Below, piece by piece: positions 3 through 26,552 of a stretch of 37,387 bases of DNA; within the stretch, counting starts at the first letter, position 1, and every line of letters begins with the position of its first letter. Origin of the DNA: Chrysochromulina tobinii (Eukaryota); the NCBI GenBank assembly GCA_001275005.1, contig JWZX01003368.1, positions 1 through 37,387 on the forward strand. Reading direction: 5' to 3'. The notes under the pieces were generated by a model that was not told the origin of the DNA, made no database searches, and was given only the letters and a program-made list of their open reading frames with translations. The translations under genes and the position numbers were made by a program.

Positions 3-1090
3 CTGCTGCCTCAGGGGAACTCGCCGCGCACAAGCCTCGTGTCCGAGCGCCACGGCATCGAGTTTCGGCAGGTTTGGAAGGTGGCAAGTTCATCGCTCGC
101 CTCATTCTTCTACTGCAACATGTGGGGATCCCTGCGACTCGACAAGCTGCCGCCTAACCAGCCGTTGCCAAAGCGCGCGATGGGCACAGGTGCATCGGCC
201 CCTCGGCTCATTGCTTTCCTGTCCCGTGAGCCAATCAGCCGCTTCGTGGCCTCGTGCTTCGAGGTCCTTGTGCGGCTCCTCAATCATGTCTCGCCAAGCG
301 GGGAGCGAATGCCCGCCGAAATGTACACGGAGCCCAAGGGCCCGTTCTCGCCGAGCGTGCTGCGGCACGGCACGAGCTGGTATGGGCCGCTGCTGCGCAC
401 GCTCAATGCCTCGAGCGCATCGGAGCGAAGGCTGGAGCTCACCGCCCTCGCCAACGGCTTCATCGAAGACATCGAGTGCGCCATCGTCTACACTGCTGCA
501 GAGCATCTCGCCACCCAAATGTCGTTCATTACGAGCGGGTACGAGGAGCGCTCGACGCGCCCCGATGAGATTGCATGTTAATTGCATGTTGATAACATGT
601 AGATAACATGCTGATGGCCTCCCTCATCAGGTACGAGGAGCGCTCGACGCTCGACTTCCAAATCCGGCTGGCCAACGCGACCGTCGACCTTGAGCGGCTC
701 GGGCGGCGCATTACGTACCAAACCCTGCATGGCGTCCCGCCGCATGCCAATACCTCCGTCTGGAAGTGCGCTCTCGGCCGGGAGAATGACGCCTCGAACA
801 AGGCAAAGCTTGCGTTCAGCAAGGCTGACTTCGTTAGCGTGCTCGAGCACAACCCCGCGTTCGTGCAGCGCCTGTGCACGGTTTACATTCAGGACTATCT
901 TTGCTTGGGCTTCGCGCTGCCGCCCGAGTGCGAGGGCGGACGAGAATTGCACCAATGGCCCCATCCTCGGCGGTCGGGCCGACGCGGCGCTCCAGTATCT
1001 GCTGTCGCTGCCCCCGCTGCCATGCAGGCCGCCGTCGCAGGGGACGTCCCTTACATGCAGGGGACGACGGGTTGGCGGACAAGTCAATGA
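3..1090 (+). CDS. Sulfotransferase family 2 (HNK-1/CHST-like) protein, 5'-partial; exons <3..538, 631..1090
   Basis: Frame is open from the window edge. PAPS-binding-like motifs FRQVWKVASSSL and FLSREPISRFVAS; C-terminal LCTVYIQDYLCLGF. Removing GT-AG intron 539..630 joins ORFs 39..581 and 608..1090 in frame (ITSG|YEERSTLDF). Confidence 0.8.
539..630 (+). other. Spliceosomal intron, family A, with exon duplication (phase 2)
   Basis: GT..CAG; 538-558 identical to 630-650 (ggtacgaggagcgctcgacgc); ends ctgatggcctccctcatcag; removal restores the frame. Confidence 0.9.
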
Positions 1091-1480: not shown

Positions 1481-2710
1481 TCAACCAAAAGGCCGACGCG
1501 CCCGATCATCAAAGAGTGCGAGATCGTCGGCGGCGGGCGAGAAGGCGTCGCCGCAGAAGGCAAAACGAATGGTACGTCGGCGGACGGCCTCAGTGGCGTG
1601 GCGCGCTGCTCGGCCCTCCCGCCAAGCGTCGTTGGTCAGGGCCCACGCGCCGTAATCAGCGCAGCACTGGAGTAGGAAGAGGTCGTCGTACTTGCCCGTG
1701 GGTGTAAGTGAGATGCACCCAAGCTGATCGACGTAGGCCAACTCAGGGTCGGCCGCATCCCAGCGGTTCTCGTTGAGTATGACAGCCATCTCGGCCGCGT
1801 GCAGCCGGCGCCCAGTCGTCCGGCGCAGGTAGTAGTCGACGCATAGGCGGATGCCACGCGCCTCGAACCGTGCGTCGCGGCTGTAGTTGAACGCGACGTT
1901 TGCGCCATCGATGATCAGCACGGGCGGGGGCAGCGCACGGGGCGGCCGCGGTACTGGTGCTGGTCCTGGGTCTGCAGCAACGAGCAGATTTGGTGCGAGA
2001 ACGGAGCCCGGCGCCGCGGACGAGCGTGCGGAGCCCTTTCGATCTCCAGCGCGATCTCCAGCGCGATCTCCCACGGCGGTGACCAGCGCATAGCTCGGCC
2101 CGCTCGAGCCTGCGATTGGTGGTGGCGGACATGGCGGCTGCAGCGGGAGCTGGCATGGGGTTCCAGCTGCAAGAGTGCCGCCCGAGAAGAATAGGTGGTC
2201 CCGAAGCGCCTCGCTACGATGCTTGCTGGATCGACGCATCGCACTCGCCGCACCCTCACGCCTCGCTGCGGCCTCGTCGTCCCTTTGCAGCTTCCACGCG
2301 AGGGCAGCAGAGGCGTCCTCACCAGCAACGTGATTTGCGAGCAGAGCACTGTGGCTACGTTGCTCCTCCTCCGCTTCAAGCTGCATGGCGAGTGCTAGCG
2401 ATGCGTCATCGTCTGGCAGAGGAGACGCTGATGCAGCCGCTCGTGCTGCCGCCGACTCAGCAGCGTGATTATGCTGCTGAGCCTCCTCCGCTTCAAGCTG
2501 CATGGCGAGAGCCAGCGATGCGTCATCGTCTGGAAGAGGAGATGCTAATGCAGCCGCATGTGCCGCAGCCACTGCCTCTGCATACGGTCCGCTGCCACGC
2601 GAAAGGAATGCGTCAACGTCCACCTCGACCGTCGAAGCATTGAAACAAGTCTTGAGTTGCTCCAGCGTGATCGCGGGATGAAGCAGCTCGGCAACTTGCT
2701 GCACATCCAT
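1481..2710 (-). CDS. NYN/PIN-fold RNase (Zc3h12a/Regnase/N4BP1-type domain) with repeated ubiquitin-binding-like helices
   Basis: C-terminal VLIIDGANVA...GIRLCVDYY...TPTGKYDDLFLL...LTNDAWRE carries the four-acidic-residue pattern of RNase_Zc3h12a. N-terminal DDDASLALAMQLEAEE x2 plus EDASAALAWKLQRDDE. Likely ATG at 2710. Confidence 0.85.
   Translation of the reverse strand: MDVQQVAELLHPAITLEQLKTCFNASTVEVDVDAFLSRGSGPYAEAVAAAHAAALASPLPDDDASLALAMQLEAEEAQQHNHAAESAAARAAASASPLPDDDASLALAMQLEAEEEQRSHSALLANHVAGEDASAALAWKLQRDDEAAARREGAASAMRRSSKHRSEALRDHLFFSGGTLAAGTPCQLPLQPPCPPPPIAGSSGPSYALVTAVGDRAGDRAGDRKGSARSSAAPGSVLAPNLLVAADPGPAPVPRPPRALPPPVLIIDGANVAFNYSRDARFEARGIRLCVDYYLRRTTGRRLHAAEMAVILNENRWDAADPELAYVDQLGCISLTPTGKYDDLFLLQCCADYGAWALTNDAWREGRAARHATEAVRRRTIRFAFCGDAFSPAADDLALFDDRARRPFG
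2365..2557. repeat. Intragenic duplication, period 117 nt, encoding ASPLPDDDASLALAMQLEAEE twice
   Basis: cctcctccgcttcaagctgcatggcgag...agcgatgcgtcatcgtctgg at 2365 and again at 2482. Confidence 0.85.
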
Positions 2711-2999
2711 CGTCCGGGCTGCAGAGCGGGCCGATCCCGCCAGCACCAAGCCAATCCCAATACCGCGAGTCGACAAGGAAAACGAGTGTCTTCCGGGCCG
2801 CTTGTGAATGGGCTGTAAATACATATGTTCACGCCGACTACTCGGAAATGTTGGAAGGGCACGCAGGATTAGGTAGGATTCTCATCACAGTTACATGTAC
2901 CCGCACGGTGTGAAACCACGCGTGCGGACGTTGCTGTTGCGGCAGTCGAACCCTGTATTGCGGCCGCACGCCACACGCACGCGCCTCAGCACTGGCCAC

Positions 3000-5900
3000 A
3001 TGGTCGCGGGCACGCCGTCCGGGCCGACGGCGTCGGCGCTGGCCTCGTCGATGCGCGCGTTGTACCCGTCGAGTGCCGACGCGACGGCCGTATCGTTGCC
3101 GACGGCGCTCATCTCGGCCGAGCGCCTGCCGCCGCCGAACCCCATGCTGCAAAAGGAGTACGCCAAGATCGGCGGCGCGGGCGCCGTACGCGCGGAGCCG
3201 GCGGCGTTACACTTTGCGGGCATCGAGATCGGCGCGGGCGGCTCGCTTGTGCAGAAGCTGCGGCTCATCAACAGCTCCGGCCACCCCATTCGCATGCACG
3301 TCCTTCCGCCGAGCACGCCCTTCTTCACGATCAGCTTCGAGAAGAAGGGCCGGCTGATGCCGGGCCTGGCCGAGGAGATCATGGTGCGCTTCGCGCCCAA
3401 CGAGGTGCGCTACTACCACGACACCATCAAGGTGCACCTCGGCGACGGCGACGAGAACTGCCTGCTGGTGCCGATCCACGCGTACCCGGCAGTCGGCGAG
3501 CTTGCCTTCCCGGCGCGCGTCGACTTCGGGATCGTGGCGCAGGGGCAGTCGCGCGAGCGCGTGCTGCCGCTACACTCGCCCGATGGCGCCGAGTTCGAGT
3601 GGCGCATCGAGGTGCGCCAACCGCACGCTGACTTTGTGATACAGCCGAGATCGGGCATCGTGCCCGCACGCGGCGAGGCGGCCATTGTCGTCACGTTCAC
3701 GCCGTCGCGTTTGGCCACGGCGCACTGCGTCTTCGAGCTGCTGATCGCGCAGCTCGGCTATGCGCCCAAAACGATCTCTCTCGTCGGCACGTCCGCGCCG
3801 CTCCAGGTCAAGGACGCGACGCTCGCCCGCTTGCGGCACAGCGAAGATGAGCGCCTGGCTTCCGAGGAGGCCGAGTTCCGGGGGCGCATGTTCCCAAACG
3901 GGGCGCGGCGGGCGGCGGGGGACGATCCGAGCTTGGACGATCCCGCTAGCGGCGCGGCGGGCGACCCGGCTCTCGCGCCCTCGGTGCTCACTGCGCCGCC
4001 CCCCACCGGCCTGATCGAAAAGATCGCCCACGAGGCGCCCTACGGCGGCGGCTCGGCGGGCGGTGACTATGTGACGCGCGCGCGCGCGGCGCAGCTGCGC
4101 GAGGCGATCGGCGACGCGTCCGTCGAGGTCAAGTACCGGGAGGAGCGCCCGTCATACCCCGAGGAAATGAAGGAGGGCTTGCGCGTGCCGCCCTTCCTCT
4201 CGAACCAGTATGCAGTCAACTCGATGCTGCTGCAGCAGCCGTATAAGATGCGGGTCTCGGACTTGCGAGTCGCCATCGAGGAGCAGCAGGCGGACGCGGC
4301 GCGCCAGCAGGAGGAGATGGAGCTCGCGGCGATGGCGAGCCTGCCAGTGCAGTCGCAGCTGCTACAGTCGCTCGGCAAGCGTGTCGATGACGTCATCGCG
4401 TACCTGTTCGCGCGCGATTCGAATGGCGTCGGAACCGTCACCCGCAAACAGTTCCTGGGCGTACGCCATTTGCTCAAGGTGGCGTGCCTGATGGCATCCC
4501 TCATCTGATGACGTGCTTGATGGCCTCCCTCATCTGATGACGTGCCTGATGGCCTCCCTCATCTGATGACGTGCCTGATTGCCTCCCTCATCAGGTGCCC
4601 ACGGCTACGGCGGCGGACATGGGCGAGTTCTTCGACGGGATGGACCACCTCAACGCGGGGGAGCTCGACTATATGCAGCTGCAACGTGTGGCCAAGCGGC
4701 GTGCGGCGACTTTGGGCGGCGGCACGGGGCGGATGGCGTCAACGTCCGTCGAGCCGGGAGAGCTCGACATCGCGCTGCAGGGCCCCGAGCGTACGCGCCA
4801 GCTCAAGGACATGCTCTTCATGAAGGAGGTGGATGCCATCGAGACGTACGAGAAGATGAAGGAGGTCAAGTCCTTCGTGGCCACCGGCCCGCCGCTGACG
4901 CAGCCGTTCATCATCGAGGCCACTCACCGCGCTCGCGACGTTTTCTACGCCGAGAAGAGGCGTGAGGAGCGCGCGGTGGCGCGCGCGCGCCAAGCGACCG
5001 AGCTGTCCGATCCGGCCAAGGTACGCGTCGAAATCTCCGAGCCCGTGGCGAAGCTTGCTGCCGACACGACGCCCAAGTTTGACTCGTATGAGGCTGAGGT
5101 GTGGGGAAAGCGCGAGGGGGTGATGTTCGACCTGCAGCTGGCGGTGCGCGTGGCCACACTACGCGCGCGCCTCAGCCGGCGCGTGGCTGCTGTGCATGCG
5201 GCGCTGGCCAAGGCCGGCATAGGGCTGCACGACAAGCACGCGGTCCATCAGCTTGTCCTCTCGCGCTCGAAGGCAGGTGGCGGCGGCGGCGGCAAGTCGG
5301 CCGGCCTCGGGAGCTCCTCAACCCTGTCCGACGGCACGGTCGGTGGTGGGGGCCTCTCCGCTCTGGCCAAGGCGGCCAAGGCTGTGGGGCTGAGCATGGA
5401 GGGCCTCGCGCCCTTCATATTTCCGGAGGCGCCCTCCAAGGGGGCAGGCGTGCCGCAGGGGGATCCTCTCCCCATCCTGCCGATTGAGCCGTTTGATGAA
5501 ACCAAGCTCTTCGCCCTTCGCGTGCCTCGCCGGTACGTGCAGATGGACTATCGCGAGGCGCTGCTGAGCGCGCCGGGCGCTTTCCCGCCAATGGTGGATG
5601 ATCGGCCGCTGCGCATCGGCGCGCCGTTTGAATCGGGCCGGTTGCTCCCGACTGGGACAGCTGTACCGGTGCCGGATACGTGGGGTCTGCCGTCGCTGCT
5701 GCTCATGCCGCCGCCGCGCCCGCCGCCGCCGCCCGAGCCCGCCGACCCAACTATGGATGACCTGTCGGCGACCAAGGCGCTGGGTGGCGACGAGGCCAAG
5801 GAGGCGGCCGGCGACGAGGAGGAAGATGCCGAGCTGTCTTGGGATGAGAAGCATCGGATGCATCTGGCCCAGCTCAAGCCGCCGATACTTGTGCAGGTGC

Positions 5901-6633
5901 ATCCGCGGGTCATGTGCCGCCCTCCTCGCGCTAATGGCCTCCCTCATTGCATGCTGATTGCCTCCCTCATTGCATGCAGGTGCATCCGCGGGTCATGTGC
6001 CGCCCTCCTCGCGCTGTGGAGACGGATGCGCGTCAGATGTTCCGCCCGATGCCGCTCACCTGCAACGAGTTTTGGAAGGCGGAGCCGATCGGCTTCGGAT
6101 CGGGCCTTGTGCTGCTCGAGGCCGCCTCCCTCTCAAGCGTGTGGCGGCGTACGGCGGACCCCTGGGCGGATGCAGTCGCCGAGCTACCCGAGCGAATGGA
6201 GGACGTCAACCCGCCCGACGCCGCAAAGGAGCTGTCGGAGGACGAGAGCGATACCGAGATCGACCCGTCGTTGCTCTTCCCGCCCTCGCTGGATAAAGTC
6301 GGCCAGATTTTCGACTTGCCGACGCTGCCGGAGGCCGGTACCCTTTTGCCCAACGAAGCCGCCGGCTCGGCCGCGGCCGCCGTGGACGCGAAGCAGGCGT
6401 CGCCGGCGGCGGCGGCGTCTGAGTCGGTCGACGATGGCGACGTGTCGATCGCGCCCGAGCGCGACCTCATCGTCGATGCTCAGTCGGAGCGAGCGCGCGC
6501 CGAGGCGGACCTCGAGCTGCAGGCCCGCCAGGCGCGACGCATGCAGAGGCTCCGGCTGCGCGAGCAGCTCGCCGCGCTCAACGAGCACATCGAGCAGCCT
6601 CGCCACCAACTGAGCCTCACGCAAGGAGCCTAA
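3000..6633 (+). CDS. CFAP221: Cilia- and flagella-associated protein 221 (PCDP1); exons 3000..4478, 4595..5896, 5980..6633
   Basis: Tandem ASH/PapD-like domains with CFAP221 signatures (LHFAG, HVLPPSTPFF, RYYHDTIKVH, LLVPIHAYP, QPRSGIVPA, LSNQYAVNSMLLQQPYKMRVSDLR). Two phase-0 introns join ORFs 2895, 4571 and 5947. EF-hand-like pair flanks intron 1. Start codon uncertain (2895/3000/3051). Confidence 0.88.
4479..4594 (+). other. Spliceosomal intron, family A, built of four tandem 29-nt units (phase 0)
   Basis: AAG|GTGGC followed by three (gtgcytgatggcmtccctcatctgatgac) units and gtgcctgattgcctccctcatcag|GTG; frame restored. Confidence 0.92.
5897..5979 (+). other. Spliceosomal intron, family A, with 41-nt perfect duplication (phase 0)
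   Basis: 5892-5932 identical to 5975-6015; insert aatggcctccctcattgcatgctgattgcctccctcattgcatgcag; frame restored. Confidence 0.92.
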
Positions 6634-9044: not shown

Positions 9045-12000
9045 ATGAAGGCGGCCGTCACGGAGCGGCCGGGCGCGAAGGCGGCCGTCACGGAGCGGCC
9101 GGGCGCGATGCTCAAAGGAGCTCCGCCACCGCCGCCAGCCAAAGGCGCGCCTTCGGGCAAAGGCGTAGCCGCCGGCGCTGTTGCTCCAACAGCCCCTCCA
9201 CCGAGCAAGATCAGCACCTTCCGGCAAGGCGACCGTTGTGCGGTGAAGAGTGATACAGTCAGCGGCACAGGCGTGATTCAGTTCGTTGGCGAGGTTGCAT
9301 CGTTAGGCCCTGGGATGTGGGTGGGGGTGCTTCACGATGAGCCCGTTGGGACCTCGAACGGTGTCATCGACGGCCGGCGGCTCTTCGCGTGCCCCAACAA
9401 GCACGGCGGATTCTACGCCGTGCACGAGATTCGTGTGGACAAGCACGCCGATGAGAAGGCATCCGGCGGTGTCCCGAAGGCGTCCGGCGGTATCCCGCAG
9501 TCAACTGCGTCACCGTCTGGGGCCGTCGGTGACGAGGCTGGTCCCTCGGTCCCTTGCGCGGCGACGAGTGTCGCTGCGGGCCGTGGCCTGCATACGGCCG
9601 TGGTGGCACAGCTCTCGCAGATTACGATCACGTGCAACGATGCGTATGGGCGACGAACGAGCGGCGGGGATTCCCTGAGCGTCATCGTGCGTGGCGTCAG
9701 TCCACCGACGCAACTGCGCGTCAAGCTGCACGACCACGGCAAGGGAGTCTACGTGGCAGAGTACCGCGCGGAGCTCTCGGGCCAGCTGCTGATCGCGGTG
9801 TGCATCCGAGGCGAGGCCGTGCCAGGAAGTCCCTTCTCGGTGGAGGCGTTGTCGCTGCACGCTGAGGCATCGCAGTGCAAGCTGAGGGGAAACGCCCTCG
9901 TGGCGGCCGTGGCGCGGAAGCCGATGGCGTTTGAGATCGACTTTGTCGATGCGCTCGGCAACCCCGCGGCGGCCGAGGAACTCGACGTGCGGCTCGAGAG
10001 GGCGGAGCCCCTGCCGCCGGAGGCGGCGCCCGTCGGCATTGATGGTGACGAGGGACAGGATGCCGAGGCGCTGGCGGAGGAGAAGGCCGCGTTCGAGGAG
10101 CGCCTCGCTGCGGTCGGCACGCTTTGCGTCCTCCTGAGCAAGGCGTCGGGACTCGACTCGGCGGATCTGAACGGCAAGAGTGACCCGTACGTCGTACTGC
10201 TGTGCGCGGAGCACAAGGCGAAGAGCACGATCAAGCCCAAGACGCTGAGCCCCGTGTGGAACGAAGACTTCTCGTTTGCTGGTACGCTCCAGTCCTTTGT
10301 CACGTCGGGCCTGATGGTCAAGGTGTACGACTGCGACAATCCTCTCAAGCCGGAGAAGGATGATCTCCTCGGCGAGAAGCTCGTGTCCCTCGACAGCTTG
10401 AAGCATCAGAACACGAGCGAGTTAGTCGAGTTCCTGTCCCTCCAGGTAAAGGGGGAAACTAAGCCCGTGCCCAAGGGCAAGGTCATGCTCACGGTGACGT
10501 GGCAGCCGCCGCCCGGTGCGGAGGACGATGACATGAGCGCGAAACTGCTCGTGGGCGACGAGCGGGTGAGAGGATCGCGCCCTCTGATTGCCTCTGATGA
10601 CCGTTTGATGACACCCCTCATCGGCGTGCTGCAGGTGGTGAGGGGATCGCGCCCTCTGATTCTGCGCGAGCGTTGTGAGAAGAACTCGGCGGTGCTGTGC
10701 ATGCTACCCCCAGGCTCCCGGCTGCAGCTTCACGAGCTCAGGGAGATGAGTGACGGTACCCGTGCGCGCGTGCGCGTGGTCAGCTTCTCGGACCCGGTCT
10801 TCGGAGCTTCTTCGAAACTCAAGACCGCACGCCCCGCGGCGACCGCTCGGCTACCCGCACCCGCCCTTCCAGTTGGCGAGTAGCTCATTGGATGGGTCAC
10901 AGCATGGTACGCCAACGGGCGACGCATGCTGGTCAAGAGGCATTTGAAGCTCGACGCGAACGAGCGGCGCCGGCAGCTCGAGCTGTGGAACAAACGGACC
11001 TTTGACGAGAGGGCGCTGATGCAGCTCCAGGGGAAGGAGAAGGCCCAAGGCAAGGAGAAGGAGTTCAACGTGGGCTCGAGCTTCGTGCATGAGCTCGCTG
11101 AAGGCCCTCGTAAGATCGCGTTCGCGTGCGGCGGCGTCTTCCCGGGCACGCTCCACGCGCACGGCGCGCTGATCAAGACGCACCAAGTGTCGTACAGCGT
11201 CGGCGCTGCGGGCAAGTACCTGATGCACGTGGGCCTTCGCCAGCAGTCGGTGGTGCTTCCAGGCTCCCCGTTTGCTCTCGAGGTGAAGCCCGGTCCCGCG
11301 CACACTGAAGACCTCTGATGACCTCTGATGACCTCTGATTGAATCTGATGGCATCTGATTGCCTCCCAGGTGAAGCCCGGTCCCGCGCACGCGCCGTCGA
11401 CCAAGTTTCCCGAGGACGTGCTGCCGCTGCAAACGGTGGTCGGCACCCAAGGAAGGCTTGTCGTCCACTTATCCGACTGCATGGGCAACAAGTGCATCGA
11501 AGGCGGCGCTCATCTCGAGGTCTCGGTCAACACGAACGGCGCGCCCAAGGCCGCTCTCACGTGTAAGTGCGACGACCAGCAGGACGGCACCTTCCTAGTC
11601 ACCTGGTCCAGCGAGGTAAGCCACAAGTTGCATGCTCGAGCTCAAGATCCACAGCATGCATGTGCTCACCACGACGCTCCACCACTTCCCCACAGGTGAG
11701 CCACAAGTACATGCTCGAGCTCAAGATCCACGGGGTGCACATCGTCGGCTCCCCGGCGCCGCTGACCCTGCTTCCTGGAGACCTCGAGGTGAGCCGCTGC
11801 TCGCTGCTCGCGCCTCGCGAGGCTGTCGCGGGCGTCGCGAGCCTGGTCGAGACCAAGTGTTGCGACGCGTATGGGAATGAGGTTGCGCCGGACGTACTCG
11901 CGGGCCATGCGCCACCCTTTGGACTCCTCCTCGTGCCCGCGCTGCTCAAGGGCGTCAGCGGGCCGACCGGCAAAGACGGACGGGACGTCGAGGAGAAGCG

Positions 12001-13599
12001 CGGTCCCAACAAGGGCGACCACGTGGACGAGAAGCGCCGCGCAGCCCTGCTCAAGAAGGAGGAGCGCGCAAACCTCGTCAAGACGCTCGACACGATGAGC
12101 TTCCATGGCTCGTGGGACGGGTCCCGAATGAAGATGAGCTTCGTGCCCAAAGAGGCCGGCGACTTTGAGTTGCATGTTTGGTGCGAGCCCAACACAATTG
12201 GGGTTCGTCAGTTCCTTCCAGGCTGCCCGACGATGATACACGTGAAACCGGGGCGTGCTAGTGCGATTGGTTCGCATGTCCGATCCGATGGCGCGTCCGT
12301 CGCGCTGCTCACCGCCGGCGACAAGCTCGCCCTTAAGGTCCAGTGGCTGATGAGCTTTGATTGCCTCCCTCATCAGGTCTGATGAGCTTTGATTGCCTCC
12401 CTCATCAGGTCCAGATCTGCGACGAGTTCAACAACTTCGTCTCCCTCGCATCGGCGTCTGATATGACCTCGATGCTCGAGACGCCCATCGGGCAGCTCGC
12501 GCTGATCCAGAAGACGAGCGAGAAGCTCGAGGATCACAAGGAGGGCGACAAGAAGAAGCACAGCGTCGCCGCCGGCTCGTCCGCGGTCGGGCTGTACGAG
12601 ATCGTGAGCCCGGGCGAGCTCACTGTTAAGGGTGCGCATAGGGTATCGATCCAGCTCTTCGGCGAATCGATCACGGGCGCGCCCATCAATATTATGGTGG
12701 CGCCCGGGCCGCCAGTCTATCATAAGAGCTACCTCGAGGCCAAGGGTAGCCGACAGGAGATCGATTCTCCCATCGACGTCATCCTCCATCTTCTCGACAA
12801 GTACGGCAATCGGTGCGAGCAGGGCGGCGTACGCGTGGACGCGAAGGCGTACGGCTCCAAGGCGAGCGAGGCCAAGGTGATCGACAATCCGAACTGGCCA
12901 TTGATGGCGCCCTTCATCAGCCTCCCTCATCAGCCTCCTTGATTGTACCTTGATTGCCTCCCTCATCAGGTGGTCGACAATTCGAACGGGACCTTTTCGA
13001 TCTCGTTCAGCGCGGCGGTCCCGGGCGATTACAAGGTCCAATGCCGCCTCGAGAATGCAGACTTGCAAGTGCTGCAGCTACACGTCCTCGAAAAGGGCGA
13101 GAAGGCCGACAAGGCGGATTACGATGAGGAGATAGCGCCAGCCCTCAGAGCCCTCGCCAGCTCCAAGCCTCCAGCCCCTCCAAAGTCCGCAAGGTCAGCC
13201 TCGTCACCGACTTCGTCGGTGGTCACGGCGCCTTCAGCGCTGCCACCGGCCCCCATGATGCCCCCGCGGCCACCTGACGGCATGTCGGGTCCGGAAGCCG
13301 CCCTAGTCAAGCAAGATGCAGACGCAGCCAAGAAGAAGAGCAAAGAGAAGGGCAGCAAGACTGGCCGTGAAGAGAAGAGCGCCCGTGAAGAGAAGGGCGC
13401 TCGTGAAGAGAAGGGCGCTCCGAGCGCCACGAGCGCCGTGACGAGCGCTACCGAGGACGAGAGCACCAAGAAGACGGCCCGGGCCGGTAGCGGCAAGGGC
13501 ATCAAAACTGGGCGCGAAAGTACTGCGAGCAGTCCACCAACACCAAAGAAGGACGCCGCCAAGAAGGGTGGTAGTAAAACCGTGAGGGTGGTTGGATGA
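9045..13599 (+). CDS. Multidomain CAP-Gly + filamin(Ig)-repeat + C2 + SH3-like protein; exons 9045..10565, 10635..(in-frame TAG 10881-10883)..11282, 11370..11615, 11696..12337, 12409..12876, 12970..13599
   Basis: CAP-Gly (GVIQFVG..GMWVGVLHDEPVGTSNGVIDGRRLFACPNKHGGF); filamin repeats (DHGKGVY..GSPFSV, DQQDGTF..HIVGSP, DNSNGTFSISF..PGDYKV); C2 (ADLNGKSDPYV..KTLSPVWNEDF..KVYD). Five phase-0 GT-AG introns join successive ORFs; one unresolved in-frame TAG. Confidence 0.8.
10566..10634 (+). other. Spliceosomal intron, family A variant, 69 nt, in-frame and stop-free (phase 0)
   Basis: CGG|GTGAG...CTGCAG; 10566-10589 matches exon 10638-10661 with 1 mismatch; contains ctgattgcctctgatg and cccctcatcgg. 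Confidence 0.8.
11283..11369 (+). other. Spliceosomal intron, family A, 10-nt repeats plus 23-nt perfect duplication (phase 0)
   Basis: 11281-11303 identical to 11368-11390; insert (ctgatgacct)n...ctgattgcctcccag; in-frame TGA stops removed by splicing. Confidence 0.92.
11616..11695 (+). other. Spliceosomal intron, family B, ~36-nt diverged duplication (phase 0)
   Basis: gtaagccacaagttgcatgctcgagctcaagatccac vs exon gtgagccacaagtacatgctcgagctcaagatccac; ends gcatgcatgtgctcaccacgacgctccaccacttccccacag. Confidence 0.9.
12338..12408 (+). other. Spliceosomal intron, family A, two identical 30-nt units with internal AG|GT (phase 0)
   Basis: ctgatgagctttgattgcctccctcatcag at 12347-12376 and 12379-12408; aggtccag at both junctions; frame restored. 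Confidence 0.9.
12877..12969 (+). other. Spliceosomal intron, family A, ~18-nt diverged duplication (phase 0)
   Basis: gtgatcgacaatccgaac vs exon gtggtcgacaattcgaac; ends ttgattgcctccctcatcag; in-frame stop removed by splicing. Confidence 0.9.
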
Positions 13600-13856: not shown

Positions 13857-16587
13857 TTAGAGGGTGACGAGGGGTGCCTCGCCTCCTGCCGCGTCGCTGG
13901 ATCGGTGCTTGCGGCGGCGGCGCTTCTCCTTCGGCGCCCCGGCATCCTCAGGCTGCGCGGGCGCTCCGAACGCCTCCCCGTCCGCGTCTCCGAGCAGGTT
14001 GACAAGGAACGGCCCCTTTGCATGGCTGAGCAGGGCTTTGGACGGCGCAGCCAGCGGCGTGGCTGCGGTCGCTCCTGCGCCGCCGGCCATTTCAGGCACG
14101 CGTCGCTCGTCGTCATCGTCATCGTCGCCGGCCCCTTCGGGCATGGCTTCGTCAAGATCAACGGCCGTAACGGCCTCCTCGTCTCCGAATGCATGCGTAC
14201 CGCCTGCCATATGAGCCAAGTCGCCCGCGCCCGCAGCGGCGCCGCCCCTGCTGCTAGCGCCGCTGCCAGTGGTGGTGGCACCTTCGGAGTACATTAGAGA
14301 CGGCTCTGCCGCGCCGGGCAGCGCGGTGCTCGGCGGGCCGGCAGGCTCGTCCGTCGCCAGGTAGTACGGGCCGGCGCGCCCGGGGCGTCGTGCGCCGTCG
14401 GAGGAGGCGGAGGTGGCACTGCCCGGATAGGCGGTCGGCGTGGAGGGCGTGGAGGGCGCGGCGGGCGCGGTTGGCGGCGGCGGCGGCGTGTACAGGGGCG
14501 TGTGTAGGTCAAGGTCCGCTGGCGGCTTCACCTTACGCTGAGCTTTTGGGGCCACCGCCCGGAGCTCCACCGTGAGACCCTGCCGCAAGGCCGCGAGCAG
14601 CCGCAGCGCACTCGGCTCGGGCCAGCTCGGATCGGGCCCACCACCCGCACTCGGATCGGTCCAGCTCGGCTCGCGCCCACCCAACGCGACGGCGCCCAAC
14701 GCGGCGGGCGCGTGCATCAGCTTGGCCGAGCTCCCGAGCTCGGCGCCGTGTCGGGCGTGCGCACCGGCGCCGAGCACGAGCACGAGCACCTCAGCGGCCG
14801 AGGTGGCGCGTTCGCTCACCTCGAGGTGCGGGGAGGCATAGAAGCGGCACAGCGCGCCGTACGTGGAGCGCACGAGCGCTCGCAGCGCCGCGGCCTCGTC
14901 CCCTTGGCACGTCGCGCCGGGTCGATCGAGCGTGGCGAGGGCGCTCTCTACCTTGGGCAGGTGGACCAGAACGCGGGGGGCCGCCTGCACGCATGCCGCC
15001 TGGACAGACGGGGAGAGTGAAGCCACCGCTGGGCACAGGAGCACCTCGAGTGACCGAAGCTGTGAAGACGGTGGCAGCTGTGAAGAGTGCTCGCCCAAGA
15101 CCCAGGCGGCCGCGTACAGCGTGGCATCCGGCTGGAGCAGGCCGGGCAGGGAGGCGCCCGCCATTTGGTCGAGCGCCGTCTCGAGCACCTCGAGTGCCTT
15201 CTCCGCCGCAAAGCCGCGTACGGACTGTACGCGGAGCGTCACCTCGACGAGGAGCTGCGCCACGTCAGCATCGTGCTTCGAGGGGAGCGCCGCGAGCGCA
15301 AAGAGCGTCGTGACGAGCCAGCGGAAGGACGGCACGTGGGAGAAGCTCTCGGCCTTCACAGCCGCCAGGAGAACCTCAATCACCTCGTCGCGATACGAGC
15401 TCTCGCTAGTGTACAGCTGTCCCATCAGCTTCGCGACCAGCCCCGGCAGGCTCGCGCGGCTGACCATCCCCGAGATCAGGCTGAGAGCGCGTTGACGAAC
15501 CGTCGGCTGGTCGTCGAGGCATTTGAGAATCGCGTCGCGGCAAGGCTCGACCAACGCCTTGTCCGCCCTCTGAAGCTCCGCGAGCGCGAGCAGCCCGAGG
15601 GCCTGCAGGTTCGGGTCGCTCGTCTCGATGAAGCCCTGAAGGTGCGTCGCAGTCAGCTGCGCGAGCTGAGGGCTCGAGTCGGCCATCGTCGAGGCGACCG
15701 TGTACAGGCATTCAAACTGGAGCGATTTGGCGGGAGTCGTCTCGATCAAATGGGTGAGGGGCTGGACGAGCTTCTTGGCGAGCCGCGGCTCATGGGGCAC
15801 GAGCTGCCGAAGGAACTTGACCACCTTAATGAGCGTCCAGTTGGAGGACGAGGTGGTGAGCACCTGTGGGGAGACGCGAGGGCGCCGTAGTCAGCACTTG
15901 CATGCAGAGTGGCGTCCGGTGAAAGGACGAGGCAGTGAGCACCTGGTAGAGCGCGGGGGCTAGCCCGAGGTACCCTTTGGGATTCTCGGTCGCGAGCTCG
16001 GTGAGCACGTTGACGGTGCACGAGACGACGTTCGGATCAGGGTCGTCGAGCTTCTCGCGCAGCCGCGGGAACGCGGTCGGCAGCGCCTCGGGCAGACGCC
16101 GCAGCAGCCGGTACAGCGCGATGACCGCCTTTTTGCGCACGAGAGGGCGCGACGAGGAGAGCAGATTGGTCACGTCCTGAAGCAGGTCGCGCGAGAGGTC
16201 GGGCGTCGCCATGACTGAGAGGCTGTTGAGCGCGAGCGACGCGTCGTGGTGCACCGACGACGCGAACGACTTGCGCAGCAGGTTGGTCGTGAGCAGCATG
16301 ACGTCCGTCGCATCCGTGAAGGTCTGCGCGGCGGCGAGGTAGCCGATGCGCTTCCCGCGAAAGCGCGGCGAGGCCATCAGGTCGACGAAGTGAAAGGCGG
16401 CCCACGAGACGTCCTGGCCGAGCATGTGCATGTACATGAGCTTGAGCACTGCATGCTGCTTGACCGTCGTGTCCGTGCTCGAGAGCTCGCCCTTGCACTC
16501 GGTGATGCAGGTGGCAAGGTACGCGGCCTCGTTTTGCGGGTTGGCGCGGATGCCTTTGATCATATCGTTGAGTGTCTTCTCGAACAT
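13857..16587 (-). CDS. AP3D1: AP-3 complex subunit delta (adaptin); exons 16587..15943, 15863..13857
   Basis: MFEKTLNDMIKGIRA...KRIGYLAAAQTF...VRKKAV...LDDPDP..V..ELATENPKGYLGLAP..YQ|VLTTSSSNWTLIKVVK..EPRLAKKL..VAPKAQRKV matches delta-adaptin. Confidence 0.95.
15864..15942 (-). other. Spliceosomal intron, family B, 19-nt duplication with 2 mismatches (phase 0)
   Basis: Minus strand: CAG|gtgctcactgcctcgtcct...gcatgcaagtgctgactacggcgccctcgcgtctccccacag|gtgctcaccacctcgtcct; restores the conserved AP3D frame. Confidence 0.93.
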
Positions 16588-16894: not shown

Positions 16895-18291
16895 ATGCTG
16901 TCTGTCGCTGTGGCCTGTTGCCCGGTCCTCGGTTCCAGTGCAACAGTCGCTGTGGCAATGGCCTGTACTGCACCGCGATCGTGCACCTCGTCGATGCTGT
17001 CAAAGCTGGAAGGAACCTCGTGGCACCCTTCTGTGGACGGTGCTGCCGCATTCGTTACCTTCACGGACGAAATGTACGAGGCGATGCTGCACGACGACGC
17101 TCGCACATCGGCCTTCGGACTAGCGATAAGCCGGAGGGTGCGTGCACACGCGGGCGACTGCGTCGTCCTCGACCTGGGAACGGGCCCATTTGCAGTGCTG
17201 GCCCTCTTCGCTGCGCGTGCAGGCGCCTCAAAAGTGTTTGCCGTCGAAGCCAATCCGGAAGCCGCGGCGAAAGCCCGCGCCTTGATCGCGAGCTCTGCAG
17301 CGTCTGACATTCCGCCAGGAACGATTGAGATAATCGAGGGCTTCTCGACGACGATCACGCTGCCGGAGCAGGCCGACCTGCTCATCTCCGAGATTGCGGG
17401 CTCGATTGCATCCGAAGAGGGCATGTTGGCCACGATCCGCGACGCGAGGCTGCGGCACATGAAGCGGCCGTGGGATCCCCGCTCCTATATCCCCGCCCGC
17501 GTCCAAACGCTCGCCGTACCTGCCGCCTACAGCCTTCACCACCGGCTCAATTGCGATTGGATCGCCTCTGGCCCTCCTGTGAGGTTTGCGTGCGACAACC
17601 CGTGGCTGCTCCCGCTCGCGACACCGCAGCTGTGGGAAGACTTTGCCTTCGGAGGCGAGGAGCTGCCGCCTGGATCGGGTGCGCGTTGCACGACGGTGCT
17701 CGAGTTCCGCGTGTGCGCGTCCACCCTCAAGGCCAACGCAGCTCGCTTGCTCGAGCAGCTCGATCTGCACGACGTCGACGCGGACCGAGCCGGTGTGCCC
17801 AAGCAAGGCCGCTCACAAAACCCTGCGCGCTGCGCCATGCCCTGCGCGGCCCGCCCCGAGCAGCTCGCCGATAGCTCGCCGAGCGCCTCTGATTATACTC
17901 CGATGGCCGCTGATTGCGACGGATTGCATGTTTGCTTCCCTCATCAGGTGCCCAAGGCCGCTCACTCGCGCAGCTCGCCGAGGACGTGGCGCACTCTCTG
18001 TCCGGGCTCGCCTGCTGGCCACGCCTCGTGCTCGATGAAGGCGGTGGTGGACCAGTCGACGAGCCCCCCATCCCTCCCATCGTCATCGAATCGCGCGGCA
18101 TGCGCGGAGAACCCTTTCGTAGCCATTGGCAAACGGTGCTCCCGTTGCTGTCGACGAGGCCAACGCCGGTCAAGGCGGGTGCGCTCATCTCAGTGAAGGC
18201 GACTGTTGAACTGAGCATGGACGTTGAGTTGCCGCCCTATTATGAGATCGAGGCTTCCATAGAGTACCCATGTGATGGCGCGCTGCCCTGA
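16895..18291 (+). CDS. PRMT-like SAM-dependent protein methyltransferase; exons 16895..17792, 17948..18291
   Basis: YEAMLHDDARTSAF, VVLDLGTGP, KVFAVEAN, ADLLISEIAG..EEG (double-E loop) and SHWQTV (THW-like loop) after the intron. Start codon uncertain. Confidence 0.85.
17793..17947 (+). other. Spliceosomal intron, family A, with fragmented exon duplication (phase 1)
   Basis: Contains gtgcccaag, caaggccgctcac and gcagctcgccga from the downstream exon; ends ctgattgcgacggattgcatgtttgcttccctcatcag; donor at 17793 restores the frame. Confidence 0.8.
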
Positions 18292-19842: not shown

Positions 19843-20380
19843 GGATGCTCTCATAGGTCAGAAGGTCGCACAGCGCAAGCCTCAAAAGCGCCAGGTCAGC
19901 AGGTCTACTTAGGAACTTACGCCTTTTCACTTTTGTGCACCGTGCACGGTAGGCGTTTTAGTCGTGGCACAGACCATAGTCCGAGAGATCCGGCACACGC
20001 GTCCCCGTAGACCCACCGTACTCCCGGTCACAGACTCACCGGTCGAACTCAGTGCGTCTGCGCGGACGGTGCGGTCGCTCGCTCGCTCCCGCGGCGCGGT
20101 CCGGACCGGACGGAAGACGTTACGTTAACTATTTAACTTAAAGATAACGCGTCGTGAAGTGGCTGTGCGGGTAGCACACGCGCGCGCCGCGGTCCGCGCC
20201 GCCGGCGCCGCGCGCGGTGCGGTGTGCCATGTTGCGCGCGGTGTCGTATGCCGTCGACTCACGCGACACAGCACTCAGCAGTCTCGGAGCGTCCTCCGTG
20301 AAACTGCTCAACCGACTACCCCGGTATTAAGTACGTCCGGTCGACCAGCTCTTCCGCATCCGATCGGAACCGCCAATGTA

Positions 20381-20612
20381 TCTCCCCTGATCACCTTACC
20401 TGTCTTCCGACGCCAACGATCCGACGCCCTTGCCAGGTCCAGTCTCCCCTGATTACCTTACCGGTCTTCCAACGCCGACGATCCGACGCCCTTGTCAGGT
20501 CCGATTCCCCTGAGTACCTTACATCCTCTGACGCCGACGATCCGACGCCATGCCAGGTCCAGTCAGCAGTCTCCCCTGATTACCTGTCCTCCGACGCCGA
20601 CGATCCGACATC
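20381..20612. repeat. Tandem array of four imperfect ~62-nt units
   Basis: Unit tctcccctgatyaccttacc..tcttccracgccracgatccgacgcccttgycaggtcc starts at 20381, 20443, 20505 and 20570 (partial). Confidence 0.9.
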
Positions 20613-20630
20613 ATTCATGCGCGTACGCTT

Positions 20631-20729
20631 TCCCTGATTGCATGCTGATGGGGCCCTCCCTCATCATGGCATGCCCATGGCCCTCCCTGATTGCATGCTG
20701 ATGGGGCCCTCCCTCATCATGGCATACAG
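20631..20729 (+). repeat. Orphan family-A-like element: two 42-nt copies (period 53) ending in ACAG
   Basis: tccctgattgcatgctgatggggccctccctcatcatggcat at 20631 and 20684, same vocabulary as the family A introns. Confidence 0.8.
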
Positions 20730-21481: not shown

Positions 21482-22819
21482 TCACGTGATGGTGGGACAT
21501 CCCGCCAACAGATCGTCGCCCATGTGCATGTACGTTCGCGGGTACTGCCCAAGGGACACGTGCCATTGAGCCCCAATGAGCGGAAGACCCCTCGTGCACT
21601 GGCCGCTGGCACCTGGATGATCGCAAAGTACCATCACGGGAAACTGAGCCCACGGCTTGGATGTGCGGACTCGTCGGTAATTTGCGGCGATAAGCTCACC
21701 AAGAAGCATGGTGAAGGTGGATCCAAAGCTACCGAGTAGCACGTCCGCGCGGCTCAGCAGCGCCAGATCTTGCATCGCAACCTCGCCAGCGTCCTCTCCG
21801 TGCTCCAAGGGCACTCGATGACTGCGAGAGACGTTCTGATGTCCAGGGGGCCTGGGAATGGATACCACCTGGCATTCCGAGCCCTGGAGAGCATCCACAA
21901 AGGCTGATAGCGTGAGCCTCCTATCCGTCGCGAGAAGCACGATGCAAGCCTGCCCCGCATAAGCGTAACGACGTCTCGCCTCTCGCACAGCCTGCTTGTA
22001 CATATCAACCGCCTCAGTGCCTATGAAAGATTGGAGCCGGTGGCGAATGTGCGCCGCAATCAGGAGCGGTGGGCGACCGTGTGCAGCACTGCTCGCCGAT
22101 TGAAGCACTGCCTCAACGGGTTCTAGGACGCGCTTGGCATCAAACTCGAAGGAGAGTGTGAACAGTCGACCGAAGAGGTAGTGCGGTCCAAGAGCAAAAA
22201 GAGCAGCTGCGCGCGAATTTCCATGCTGGAATCTCACGCTGCACCCTGCCCCCAGTGCAGCCAGCTCCATGGAGTCGAAGCGCTCCGCACCTTTACTTGA
22301 AAGAACGATGAGATCGTTTTCCGTATCGCACCGCCGCAACTGGCGAGTGCCGACACAAGCTAAACGTTGCTCAAAGCTCGAGTTTGACACTTCTGCAAGG
22401 GCGTCTCCCAGGCGGCAAGTGGAGCGCTTGGCGCACCGATCAGTCGTTGAGTGCAACCTCACATTGTTCAACCACGACGAGCGCTTTATGTACGTATCAC
22501 ATGGCTCAACCTGGTACTTCCAAGACTGGGACCATGCGAATGGCACATTGCGAGTCGTTGCAAAGGCTAGCGCGTTCAGGTAGTGATGCATGAAATTTCC
22601 TATGCGTGCAGGGCACGCATAGTCACTCGACACGCACGGCTGCTTGTACCAAGCAGTATCACCCATCAATGTAGCTTGCACATACTCAGTCAGCAATTTG
22701 TCGATGCGTTCCATGTGCGCTGCGACGTCTTGCGCGGGCACTTGCTTGAGGTCGGACCATGCGTGCTGCTTTGACAGCAATACCGCAAAGTCAGTTGAAA
22801 GGTTAGGACCGTGAGCCAT
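21482..22819 (-). CDS. Fucosyltransferase-like glycosyltransferase (GT-B; FUT8/NodZ/GT37-like motifs)
   Basis: RIGNFMHHYLNALAFA, IAAHIRHR, IVLLATDRR and QDLALLSRADVLLGSFGSTF match the conserved alpha-2/6-fucosyltransferase motifs. First ATG at 22819. Confidence 0.7.
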   Translation of the reverse strand: MAHGPNLSTDFAVLLSKQHAWSDLKQVPAQDVAAHMERIDKLLTEYVQATLMGDTAWYKQPCVSSDYACPARIGNFMHHYLNALAFATTRNVPFAWSQSWKYQVEPCDTYIKRSSWLNNVRLHSTTDRCAKRSTCRLGDALAEVSNSSFEQRLACVGTRQLRRCDTENDLIVLSSKGAERFDSMELAALGAGCSVRFQHGNSRAAALFALGPHYLFGRLFTLSFEFDAKRVLEPVEAVLQSASSAAHGRPPLLIAAHIRHRLQSFIGTEAVDMYKQAVREARRRYAYAGQACIVLLATDRRLTLSAFVDALQGSECQVVSIPRPPGHQNVSRSHRVPLEHGEDAGEVAMQDLALLSRADVLLGSFGSTFTMLLGELIAANYRRVRTSKPWAQFPVMVLCDHPGASGQCTRGLPLIGAQWHVSLGQYPRTYMHMGDDLLAGCPTIT

Positions 22820-22957
22820 CCTTCGGGGAAGACACCGCCACTTGGTCCACTTGCCTCCACGCGGCGCGTGCGCCGCCTTTGCCACACTCCCTCACTAGCC
22901 TCTTCGCGGCGCGCGGCGCGGCGCGCGGCGCCTGAAAAGGGACTTGCGGACTTCATT

Positions 22958-25296: not shown

Positions 25297-25343
25297 GTTC
25301 CGTCCGGCGCGAACTGTGATCGTGAAAGCCCTCTTTGGCTACA

Positions 25344-26552
25344 ATGCGCACACCGTCTCTGCACATCCGATTCGACGGGAGCTTTCGCGGCAGCTGCGGC
25401 GGCTGTGGCGCAGTGCTTTGGCTCGACAACGTACTGCTGTGGGAGGGCGCCCGGTTCTTGCCGCGGTGTCCCTCGTCGACCGCTGCAGAGTATGAGGGCC
25501 TGTTGCTCGGTCTTGCGGCGGCGGCACAGCATGCCCTTGAGCCCTCAGTGCGTGCAGCCTTGACCGTCGAGGGCGATTGTCGCGTCGTCCTCACGCAATT
25601 CGAGGGGCGTGCCACGCCGCGCAAGCTCTCAAAACTGCACGCGCGCGCGCATGAGCACGTCGCGCTGCTCGCGCCGAGGTCGCTCTCGACCTCACTTGTG
25701 CCACGCGAGCAGAACGCACACTGCGACGCGCTCTCGCGGGCAGCCATGGACGCGGCCGTCGATTTGAGAACGGGATCCATCCTCGGCACCGCCCGTGCCG
25801 GCCAGCGTCAGCAAGCGCTCGCGCTGCTTGAAGGCGCGGGGCGCGACGGCGTGCCATGCGACCCAACGCTCATCCTCGAGTTGCTCCTCGGCGCGCGCGC
25901 CGCCTCTGACTGGGGCGGCCTGCTCTCCGTGTACGCGGAGGCGGAGGCACAATCTGGGATCGGCACGGGCCGAGGCTCGAGCGGCGCTGGGCCGGGCGGG
26001 CGGGCGCTCGCGATCGAGGCGCTCGAGGCACTTGAGGTGCGTCGTGGCACGTCGGCGGGACGGCACCTAGTCGAGCTCCGGCGGCAGGCGAGAGACGAGG
26101 CGCAGCGGCGCCCGAGACGGTATGCTCTCGCAGAGGCGCGGCCGCAGACGCAGACGTCACTGCGCAGTGACGGCGAATCAGTCGAGAGAGTAGCGGCCGC
26201 TGCGGCGGCGTTGGACGCGGTCGGCGTTCACGGTCGGCGTTCACGGTCAGCGGCGATGGACACGGTCGGCGAGGAAGAGATAGCGGCGGCGGCGGCGGCG
26301 GCGGCTGACGAGGAGCGACTCCGCACACCCATCGACGACGGCCCCAAAGATGACCGAAAAGAGGAGCGCGCGTTGGCGGCAGCCTGCTGGCGTGAGGCGC
26401 TCGAGCGTGAGGTCGGCGGCCCCGAGGCGCTCCGAGGAGAGAGGAGCGAGCCCGAGGCGCTCGAGCGGCTCGTAGCGCTGGCCGAGCGGCTGCAGAGTGA
26501 GCACGGCTTTGGTCGCACTCCAGAGAACTGTCCTACCAACGACAGGCGGTAA
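25344..26552 (+). CDS. RNase HI-like domain protein followed by a PPR-like helical repeat
   Basis: IRFDGSFRG..GCGAVLW, AAEYEGLLLGL, LTVEGDCRVV, VPREQNAHCDALS give the D-E-D-D set of RNase H type 1. Confidence 0.85.
   Translation: MRTPSLHIRFDGSFRGSCGGCGAVLWLDNVLLWEGARFLPRCPSSTAAEYEGLLLGLAAAAQHALEPSVRAALTVEGDCRVVLTQFEGRATPRKLSKLHARAHEHVALLAPRSLSTSLVPREQNAHCDALSRAAMDAAVDLRTGSILGTARAGQRQQALALLEGAGRDGVPCDPTLILELLLGARAASDWGGLLSVYAEAEAQSGIGTGRGSSGAGPGGRALAIEALEALEVRRGTSAGRHLVELRRQARDEAQRRPRRYALAEARPQTQTSLRSDGESVERVAAAAAALDAVGVHGRRSRSAAMDTVGEEEIAAAAAAAADEERLRTPIDDGPKDDRKEERALAAACWREALEREVGGPEALRGERSEPEALERLVALAERLQSEHGFGRTPENCPTNDRR

Follow-up and report, generated by a model that had tools for sequence, protein, structure and literature searches.

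A contig of the haptophyte alga Chrysochromulina tobinii (JWZX01003368.1, 37,387 nt; hereafter the window, by which we mean the whole stretch of DNA that was analysed) carries at 5897–5979 a young spliceosomal intron that belongs to a recently active intron-making system. It consists of 36 nt copied from the exon that follows it and a 47-nt repeat tail, and introns of the same general kind recur along the first half of the window. The origin of spliceosomal introns has long been an open question, and the source of most new introns is not known. Here the scar of insertion is kept in the new introns, which are sorted among cultured and wild haplotypes, and as the alga is culturable and has public genomes, the route (RNA or DNA template) and the rates of gain and loss are directly testable.

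Anatomy and splicing of the focal intron

The host gene, which we take to be CFAP221/PCDP1-like, matches ASH/Ig-like domains of Pfam in its first exon, and its spliced product is 100% identical to the Chrysochromulina parva entry P0008 of EukProt. Around the focal intron, 5892–5932 equals 5975–6015 exactly over 41 nt, at a spacing of 83. Five of these 41 repeat letters (TGCAG) are the acceptor, and the same terminal letters close other introns of the genome, as loose ends at 5982–5983 reveal; the part of the focal duplication that is sure is therefore 36 nt and not 41. The tail carries the putative branch site and acceptor.

Splicing of 5897–5979 is supported, indirectly, by the annotated protein and by colinear homologues. 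None of the RNA contigs listed spans the junction formed by splicing out the focal intron; in runs X13 and X14 the RNA pieces at the intron junctions have a depth of 10–13 compared to 19–30 for the exons, and X13 has no depth in two silent bins. These contigs, which are no measure of level and whose depth was not used as a splicing rate, hint at partial retention of the focal intron. A transcript retaining it would enter another open C-terminal frame (5897–6613) and terminate at 6613, 20 nt short of the normal stop.

Ten introns of the same general kind

We found ten introns of this general kind, all in the first 18 kb of the window (Table 1). A sequence-only reading of the same DNA had listed perfect duplications at 539, 5897 and 11283, slightly diverged ones at 10566, 12877 and 15942, an indel-bearing one at 11616 and a fragmented one at 17793. 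The three perfect duplications are exact, and the positions given for them are intron starts; the exact repeats at 538–558 (21 nt, spacing 92) and 11281–11303 (23 nt, spacing 87), like the focal one, include flanking splice letters in the quoted lengths of 21, 41 and 23, the copied exon parts being 20, 36 and 21 nt. Alignment confirmed the diverged, indel-bearing and fragmented copies. The list was accurate but missed the introns at 4479 and 12338, which share just 3 and 6 nt with their own downstream exons.

Table 1 Coordinates of the host gene, the parts of the focal intron and the other introns of its kind
Feature	Position	Strand	Description
Host gene, three exons	3000..6633	+	1144 aa with both introns spliced out
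Focal intron	5897..5979	+	83 nt, phase 0, GT..CAG
Copy, within the intron, of the next exon's first 36 nt	5897..5932	+	Provides the GT donor
Repeat tail of focal intron	5930..5979	+	Two 23-nt units (91% alike) plus GCAG
Exonic copy, original target	5980..6015	+	Identical to the intronic 36 nt
Intron	539..630	+	Perfect 20-nt exon copy; upstream exon ends GG
Intron	4479..4594	+	29-nt unit four times (three times in L006); exon match of 3 nt; sister-lineage proteins lack the intron
Intron	10566..10634	+	23/24 copy (offset by 3 nt); ends in a 9-nt tail-motif match
Intron	11283..11369	+	Perfect 21-nt copy; apparently common to the sister lineage
Intron, second tail family	11616..11695	+	36-nt copy, changed by two substitutions and an inserted base; no mismatch in L006; the sister lineage apparently lacks this intron
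Intron	12338..12408	+	Copy of 6 nt; 32-nt unit present twice (four times in L006); a DNA run and several proteins show an intron-less form
Intron	12877..12969	+	Copy 18/21, or 16/18 over the part that has no mismatch in L006; the sister lineage apparently lacks this intron
Intron, second tail family, AP-3 delta gene	15864..15942	-	25/31 copy
Intron with fragmented exon copy	17793..17947	+	13-nt exact core, broken by inserts

To score these copies, we used two controls, the best foreign exon and the 99th percentile of ~500 random stretches of the window. A copy of the intron's own exon (18–36 nt) exceeded both in seven of the ten introns, with scores of 13.5–36 for these seven, 7.5–11.5 for the best foreign exon and 10–11 for the random percentile; the intron at 17793 fell narrowly below its random control (13.0 vs 13.5). 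The duplication starts at the donor in every intron and is 3–36 nt long, the exon copy making up as much as 43% of the intron. Every intron also has a non-exon tail of 43–113 nt. The tails fall into two families, terminate at CAG and have ragged 5' ends, where they overlap the exon copy by 3 nt at 5897 (within the first 23-nt unit), by 9 nt at 10566 and, judged by eye, by about 4 nt at 11616.

The downstream exon begins with GT in 10/10 cases. The upstream exon ends in G in all ten and in AG in only seven, which indicates that the donor comes from the exon copy and the acceptor with the tail; at 539, where the upstream exon ends in GG, the AG must have been supplied by the tail. These counts bear on another possible origin, in which tandem duplication alone, of an exon segment containing AG|GT, made the intron and the tail was a later addition. 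TGCAG precedes both focal copies, so a 41-nt tandem event would fit, and the accessible part of one report (PMC3443670) gives in vivo support for the mechanism. Given that 3/10 upstream exons do not end in AG, that a non-exon tail is present in every intron and that the identical acceptor end occurs at other loci, we consider this origin very unlikely.

Matches to the tail motifs lie on the sense strand of their own intron or array in 22 of 22 cases, 20 of them in introns and two in an array at 20631–20729. The latter is part of a stretch (20378–20729) of 62-nt tandem repeats followed by a doubled 42-nt tail-like array that ends in CAG, in which neither an exon copy nor a gene was identified. 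Between 21000 and 37387 the window has no tail-motif match, despite several long single-frame genes. Other features of the window are a 469-aa open frame in a lower-GC stretch (21482–22891, minus strand), for which no Pfam match was obtained, and a 466-aa frame (1481–2881, minus strand) that encodes a Zc3h12a-like NYN ribonuclease domain and contains an internal duplication of 117 nt. Scans elsewhere gave 0, 0, 5 and 2 matches in viral contigs and 2 in prokaryote genomes, eight of the nine being chance matches on inspection; a 4.5-kb record of the viral collection carries at one end a second-family intron tail with CAG|GT (L016, 401–460).

Age, gain and turnover

From 75 candidate stretches we obtained seven relatives, six of which cover the focal site. 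The same 83 nt are present in 6/6, three of these loci being near-copies of the window and not independent. Fourfold-site differences amount to 19/696 in L006, 10/400 in L007 and 14/694 in L008 (2.0–2.7%), and the focal intron predates a divergence of ~1–1.4% per lineage if it shared its history with its flanks; the copy itself, at 0/36 mismatches, bounds its divergence only at <8%.

The sister lineage (96.5–96.7% identity, tree support 100/99) apparently lacks the focal intron. Among the matches listed, six of its full-length proteins, one of them on a 72,977-nt contig, read through the focal site, and four outgroups at 51–53% identity also do. Presence and absence in relatives were read from predicted proteins matched to contigs by equal length and, for the large clusters, from 15 of 40 members among the matches listed. 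Reading through can be taken as absence of the intron, because gene calls of this type ignore introns: P0017 and P0070, entries from the same sources, have starts or stops that lie within introns. The read-through peptide, used as a query, gave among the matches listed only one intron-bearing cluster, of five members. Since both the sister-lineage proteins and the four outgroups read through, the change at the focal site is, on these predicted proteins, a gain. The protein tree separates only the sister lineage and leaves six intron-less and seven intron-bearing proteins of the species group unseparated (three changes).

DNA contigs of runs X1 and X11 skip the focal intron, with 41 letters fitting both sides. 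We rejected these skips as proof of an empty allele, as the 41-nt repeat is longer than the 31-letter assembly word and skipping is expected when such words meet it. Assembly collapse can thus fake an empty site, and short-word assemblers erase introns of this kind and so create false empty alleles; the Logan-only proteins P0009 and P0016 are accordingly weak evidence of an intron-less state. Could the focal intron itself be an assembly artefact, or an old intron lost in relatives? The skips would agree with this, direct repeats could drive exact loss, and P0007, which has no focal intron, equals the intron-bearing L006, L007 and P0038 over exon 2. Yet the 83 nt are held in all covering loci, junction pieces occur in the RNA runs and the distant outgroups read through the site, which makes either possibility extremely improbable.

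The sequence-only reading had further proposed that the intronic copy decays neutrally, so that each intron would have an internal clock and the copies of the window would form an age series. Change does fall in the intronic copy: with L006, 5/6 mismatches were polarised to the intron side, the sixth, at 10566, being common to L006 and unpolarised. For the copies at 11616 and 12877, each of the five letters in which window and L006 differ has changed in the intron, and donor positions +3 and +4 account for two of these changes; at 15942 the AP-3 delta exon keeps the NW motif of human AP3D1 that is lost from the intron copy. Two window-specific G-to-A changes, at 11618 and 12880 (two cases only), lie at donor +3 and +4 and shift the copied exon toward the usual donor consensus.

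The clock and the age series did not hold up. L006 has no mismatch in either of the 'decayed' copies, 36 nt at 11616 and 18 nt at 12877. The perfect intron at 11283 apparently occurs in the sister lineage (~94% amino acid identity), which seems to lack 11616, 12338 and 12877: among 20 close relatives examined, six sister-lineage proteins have the last part of intron 11283 as their N-terminus, and the same six read through the other three. Mismatch counts, the suggested distribution of duplicate divergence, are not heterogeneous when 15942 is left out (permutation P 0.18; P 0.017 with it). The two findings said to speak against the idea were perfect-copy introns that are fixed and shared with distant species, which is partly the case in that 11283 apparently reaches the ~94% sister lineage, and mismatches mainly in the exon copy, which were not seen.

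The introns 12338, 12877 and 4479 are absent in some relatives where collapse cannot act, the repeats at 12338 and 12877 being too short for it. A contig of 32,138 nt, to judge by the proteins linked to it through its length, probably has 4479, 11616 and 12877 and lacks 5897 and 12338. We infer that 11283 arose first, then 4479, 11616 and 12877, and then 5897 and 12338; dating is limited to these and to what diverged loci cover, none of which covers 539, 15942 or 17793. On this order a perfect copy sits in the oldest datable intron and another among the youngest. The claim that a perfect copy means recent activity therefore stands for the focal intron, a recent gain or loss, and fails for 11283, which is likely older than its decayed neighbours. 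Some proteins do not fit a simple order: P0071 contains 12338 while reading straight through 12877, and P0067, in which 12338 is missing, shows the altered 12877 copy of the window; these may be transcripts, recombinants or exact losses.

Empty-site alleles, which had been suggested as a check, are confounded by assembly collapse at the focal site, but an empty site is likely at 12338. An X11 contig joins across 12338–12408 (8 shared letters, 22 on the short side, 'between: not known') and a second X11 contig ends at branch point 12343; the region has doubled depth and a second version that shares 15/37 listed variant letters with L006. The second version is present in the same cultures, with doubled DNA depth over ~7.8–13 kb and small indels at 9159, 9232 and 10757. 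A short contig without intron 4479 (L009, 1–700), its start joined to unrelated sequence, is either a transcript or an empty allele.

Unit number varies relative to L006 at four introns, which points to slippage: three units at 4479 in L006 vs four in the window, four vs two at 12338, one extra decamer in the comparison at 11283, and at 10566–10634 a doubling, in L006, of the whole intron plus exon copy into back-to-back introns with no clear exon between. Because slippage, intron doubling and possibly exact loss follow insertion, copy identity is only a coarse clock. The CAP-Gly/filamin/C2 gene at 9045–13599 holds an in-frame TAG near 10881 (CAG in L006), and the five introns in it may be under relaxed selection.

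Proposed copying of intron tails, and known systems

How might such introns be made? We give about an even chance to a route in which an exon undergoes a staggered break and receives there a copy of an existing intron's 3' tail, with a 36-nt duplication left in the focal case. A nick at G|GT would expose a 3' end for pairing with a template whose last letters are CAG-GT(G); synthesis would copy 43–75 nt of intron tail; rejoining by microhomology would occur at a second nick 6–36 nt downstream; and fill-in would duplicate the target, so that the first copy provides the GT donor and the tail the acceptor. Slippage between repeats could later alter the tail or double the intron, and the direct repeats could also permit exact loss. 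As the introns precede GT(G), and a CAG-GT template could pair with any nicked G|GT site, the proposal would explain the choice of target. What is seen directly is the anatomy, its recurrence in 7/10 introns, the two tail families, sharing among haplotypes and the changes in intron copies.

As to the template, RNA copied by a borrowed reverse transcriptase, in the target-primed style of non-LTR elements, is slightly preferred over DNA-templated repair. In target-primed synthesis the 3' end of the insert is fixed, its 5' end is ragged and shows microhomology, and a duplication of variable length starts at the 3' junction. A fixed 3' end and a truncated 5' end with microhomology are seen here, in just ten selection-filtered exonic cases, and the target duplication varies (3–36 nt) as it does for non-LTR target-primed insertions. 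Since selection has filtered the survivors in exons, any mechanism should leave fixed 3' ends and sense orientation among them. A lariat would stop reverse transcriptase at the branch point, and the tails extend past the expected branch point, which counts against the RNA route. The tails have degenerate 10–32 nt repeats instead of poly(A), no reverse transcriptase or transposase gene was found among the 24 ORFs or exons scanned, and the window ORFs include no LINE partner sharing the tail's 3' end. An intron-less gene at 25326–26552 (plus strand) has an RVT_3 domain, by our reading of the match an RNase H-like domain.

Alternatively, a staggered break or a replication template switch might copy the tail of another intron by microhomology and return at G|GT, a purely DNA-templated repair that we consider possible but doubtful. 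It needs neither RNA nor a mobile element, would yield the same product as RNA-templated copying and leaves it to selection to retain spliceable products. Template would be abundant (the focal-tail sequence is high-copy in DNA runs, at a summed depth ~1000× the flank), microhomology is present at junctions, and neointrons of Daphnia have 4–12 bp repeats from staggered breaks, according to the accessible part of PMC4202315. The duplications here are longer than those, though, and 0/22 tail matches are antisense in 37 kb including intergenic DNA, admittedly a small sample.

A short non-autonomous DNA transposon, that is, a classical introner or MITE taking its donor from the target duplication, is in our view unlikely. 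The splice-site polarity is that of Polarella classes 4/5 and 6/8/10, and some tails contain a palindromic pair, CTGATG..CATCAG. Those classes have fixed 3–8 nt duplications, however, compared to 3–36 nt here; at the focal intron this pair is missing from the tail's ends, and the fold is no stronger than that of shuffled sequence (z -0.95); 5' ends are ragged; and a published screen gives C. tobinii no families. Going beyond copying at the focal site, we would put forward, tentatively and with low confidence, that introns of Chrysochromulina breed introns, their 3' tails being reverse-copied from RNA into G|GT sites, with long target duplications, in an ongoing, genome-wide process of gain and loss that has no dedicated element and is invisible to introner screens, which would miss it because every intron takes its 5' half from the exon it interrupts.

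Like introners, the introns of the window draw their two splice sites from different sources, the target (through the exon copy, which gives GT in 10/10) and the insert, and they vary in presence among close relatives (4479, 12338 and 12877, and the focal intron relative to the sister lineage). They are not similar end to end, as only short motifs are common and the 5' parts are locus-specific, and their duplications of 3–36 nt differ from the fixed short ones (3–9 bp) of TIR introners. Classes 4/5 and 6/8/10 of Polarella glacialis and the ILEs of Symbiodinium likewise draw the 5' splice site from the target duplication, carry the 3' site on the insert and are biased to phase 0, as described in the accessible text of bioRxiv 10.1101/2020.10.14.339549; their duplications have a constant length of 4 or 8 nt and the Symbiodinium elements have inverted repeats, whereas here the duplication is 3–36 nt and the insert a degenerate tandem tail.

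Among haptophytes, the consulted portions of PMC12130899 describe fam24 of Emiliania huxleyi (5 copies, class unknown, '10bp terminal direct repeats') and fam1 of Pavlovales (non-LTR), both of which co-opt the 5' site and carry the 3' site, and give non-LTR introners as 5% of classified cases. The two share with our introns their polarity and either direct repeats or a non-LTR assignment, but are small families of near-identical introns, a distinction drawn from their description and not from sequence. The same portions list 0 families for C. tobinii. Of a published Chrysochromulina-labelled introner, what is available shows the genus label and a figured family without inverted repeats in common with our case; its Family 5, with a duplication of 4 bp, brings its own 5' site and recruits the 3' site from the target, which is the opposite polarity. 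In the literature as accessible to us we found no account of such an architecture in Chrysochromulina, and further Chrysochromulina MAG families (PMC9860276) may bear on its novelty. As the standard screen missed this system, similar ones may hide elsewhere.

The inserts of Daphnia pulex neointrons reportedly have no shared tail family. By the accessible account (PMC4202315), those introns resemble ours in their direct repeat with the adjacent exon, their polymorphism and their later internal duplications, and differ in that the repeats are 4–12 bp, while 7/10 introns here have longer copies. Finally, intron transposition and template switching during reverse transcription, as treated in the part of PMC3443670 available, also derive a new intron from existing ones; these models move the whole intron, whereas here only the 3' tail comes from an intron and the 5' part is exon.
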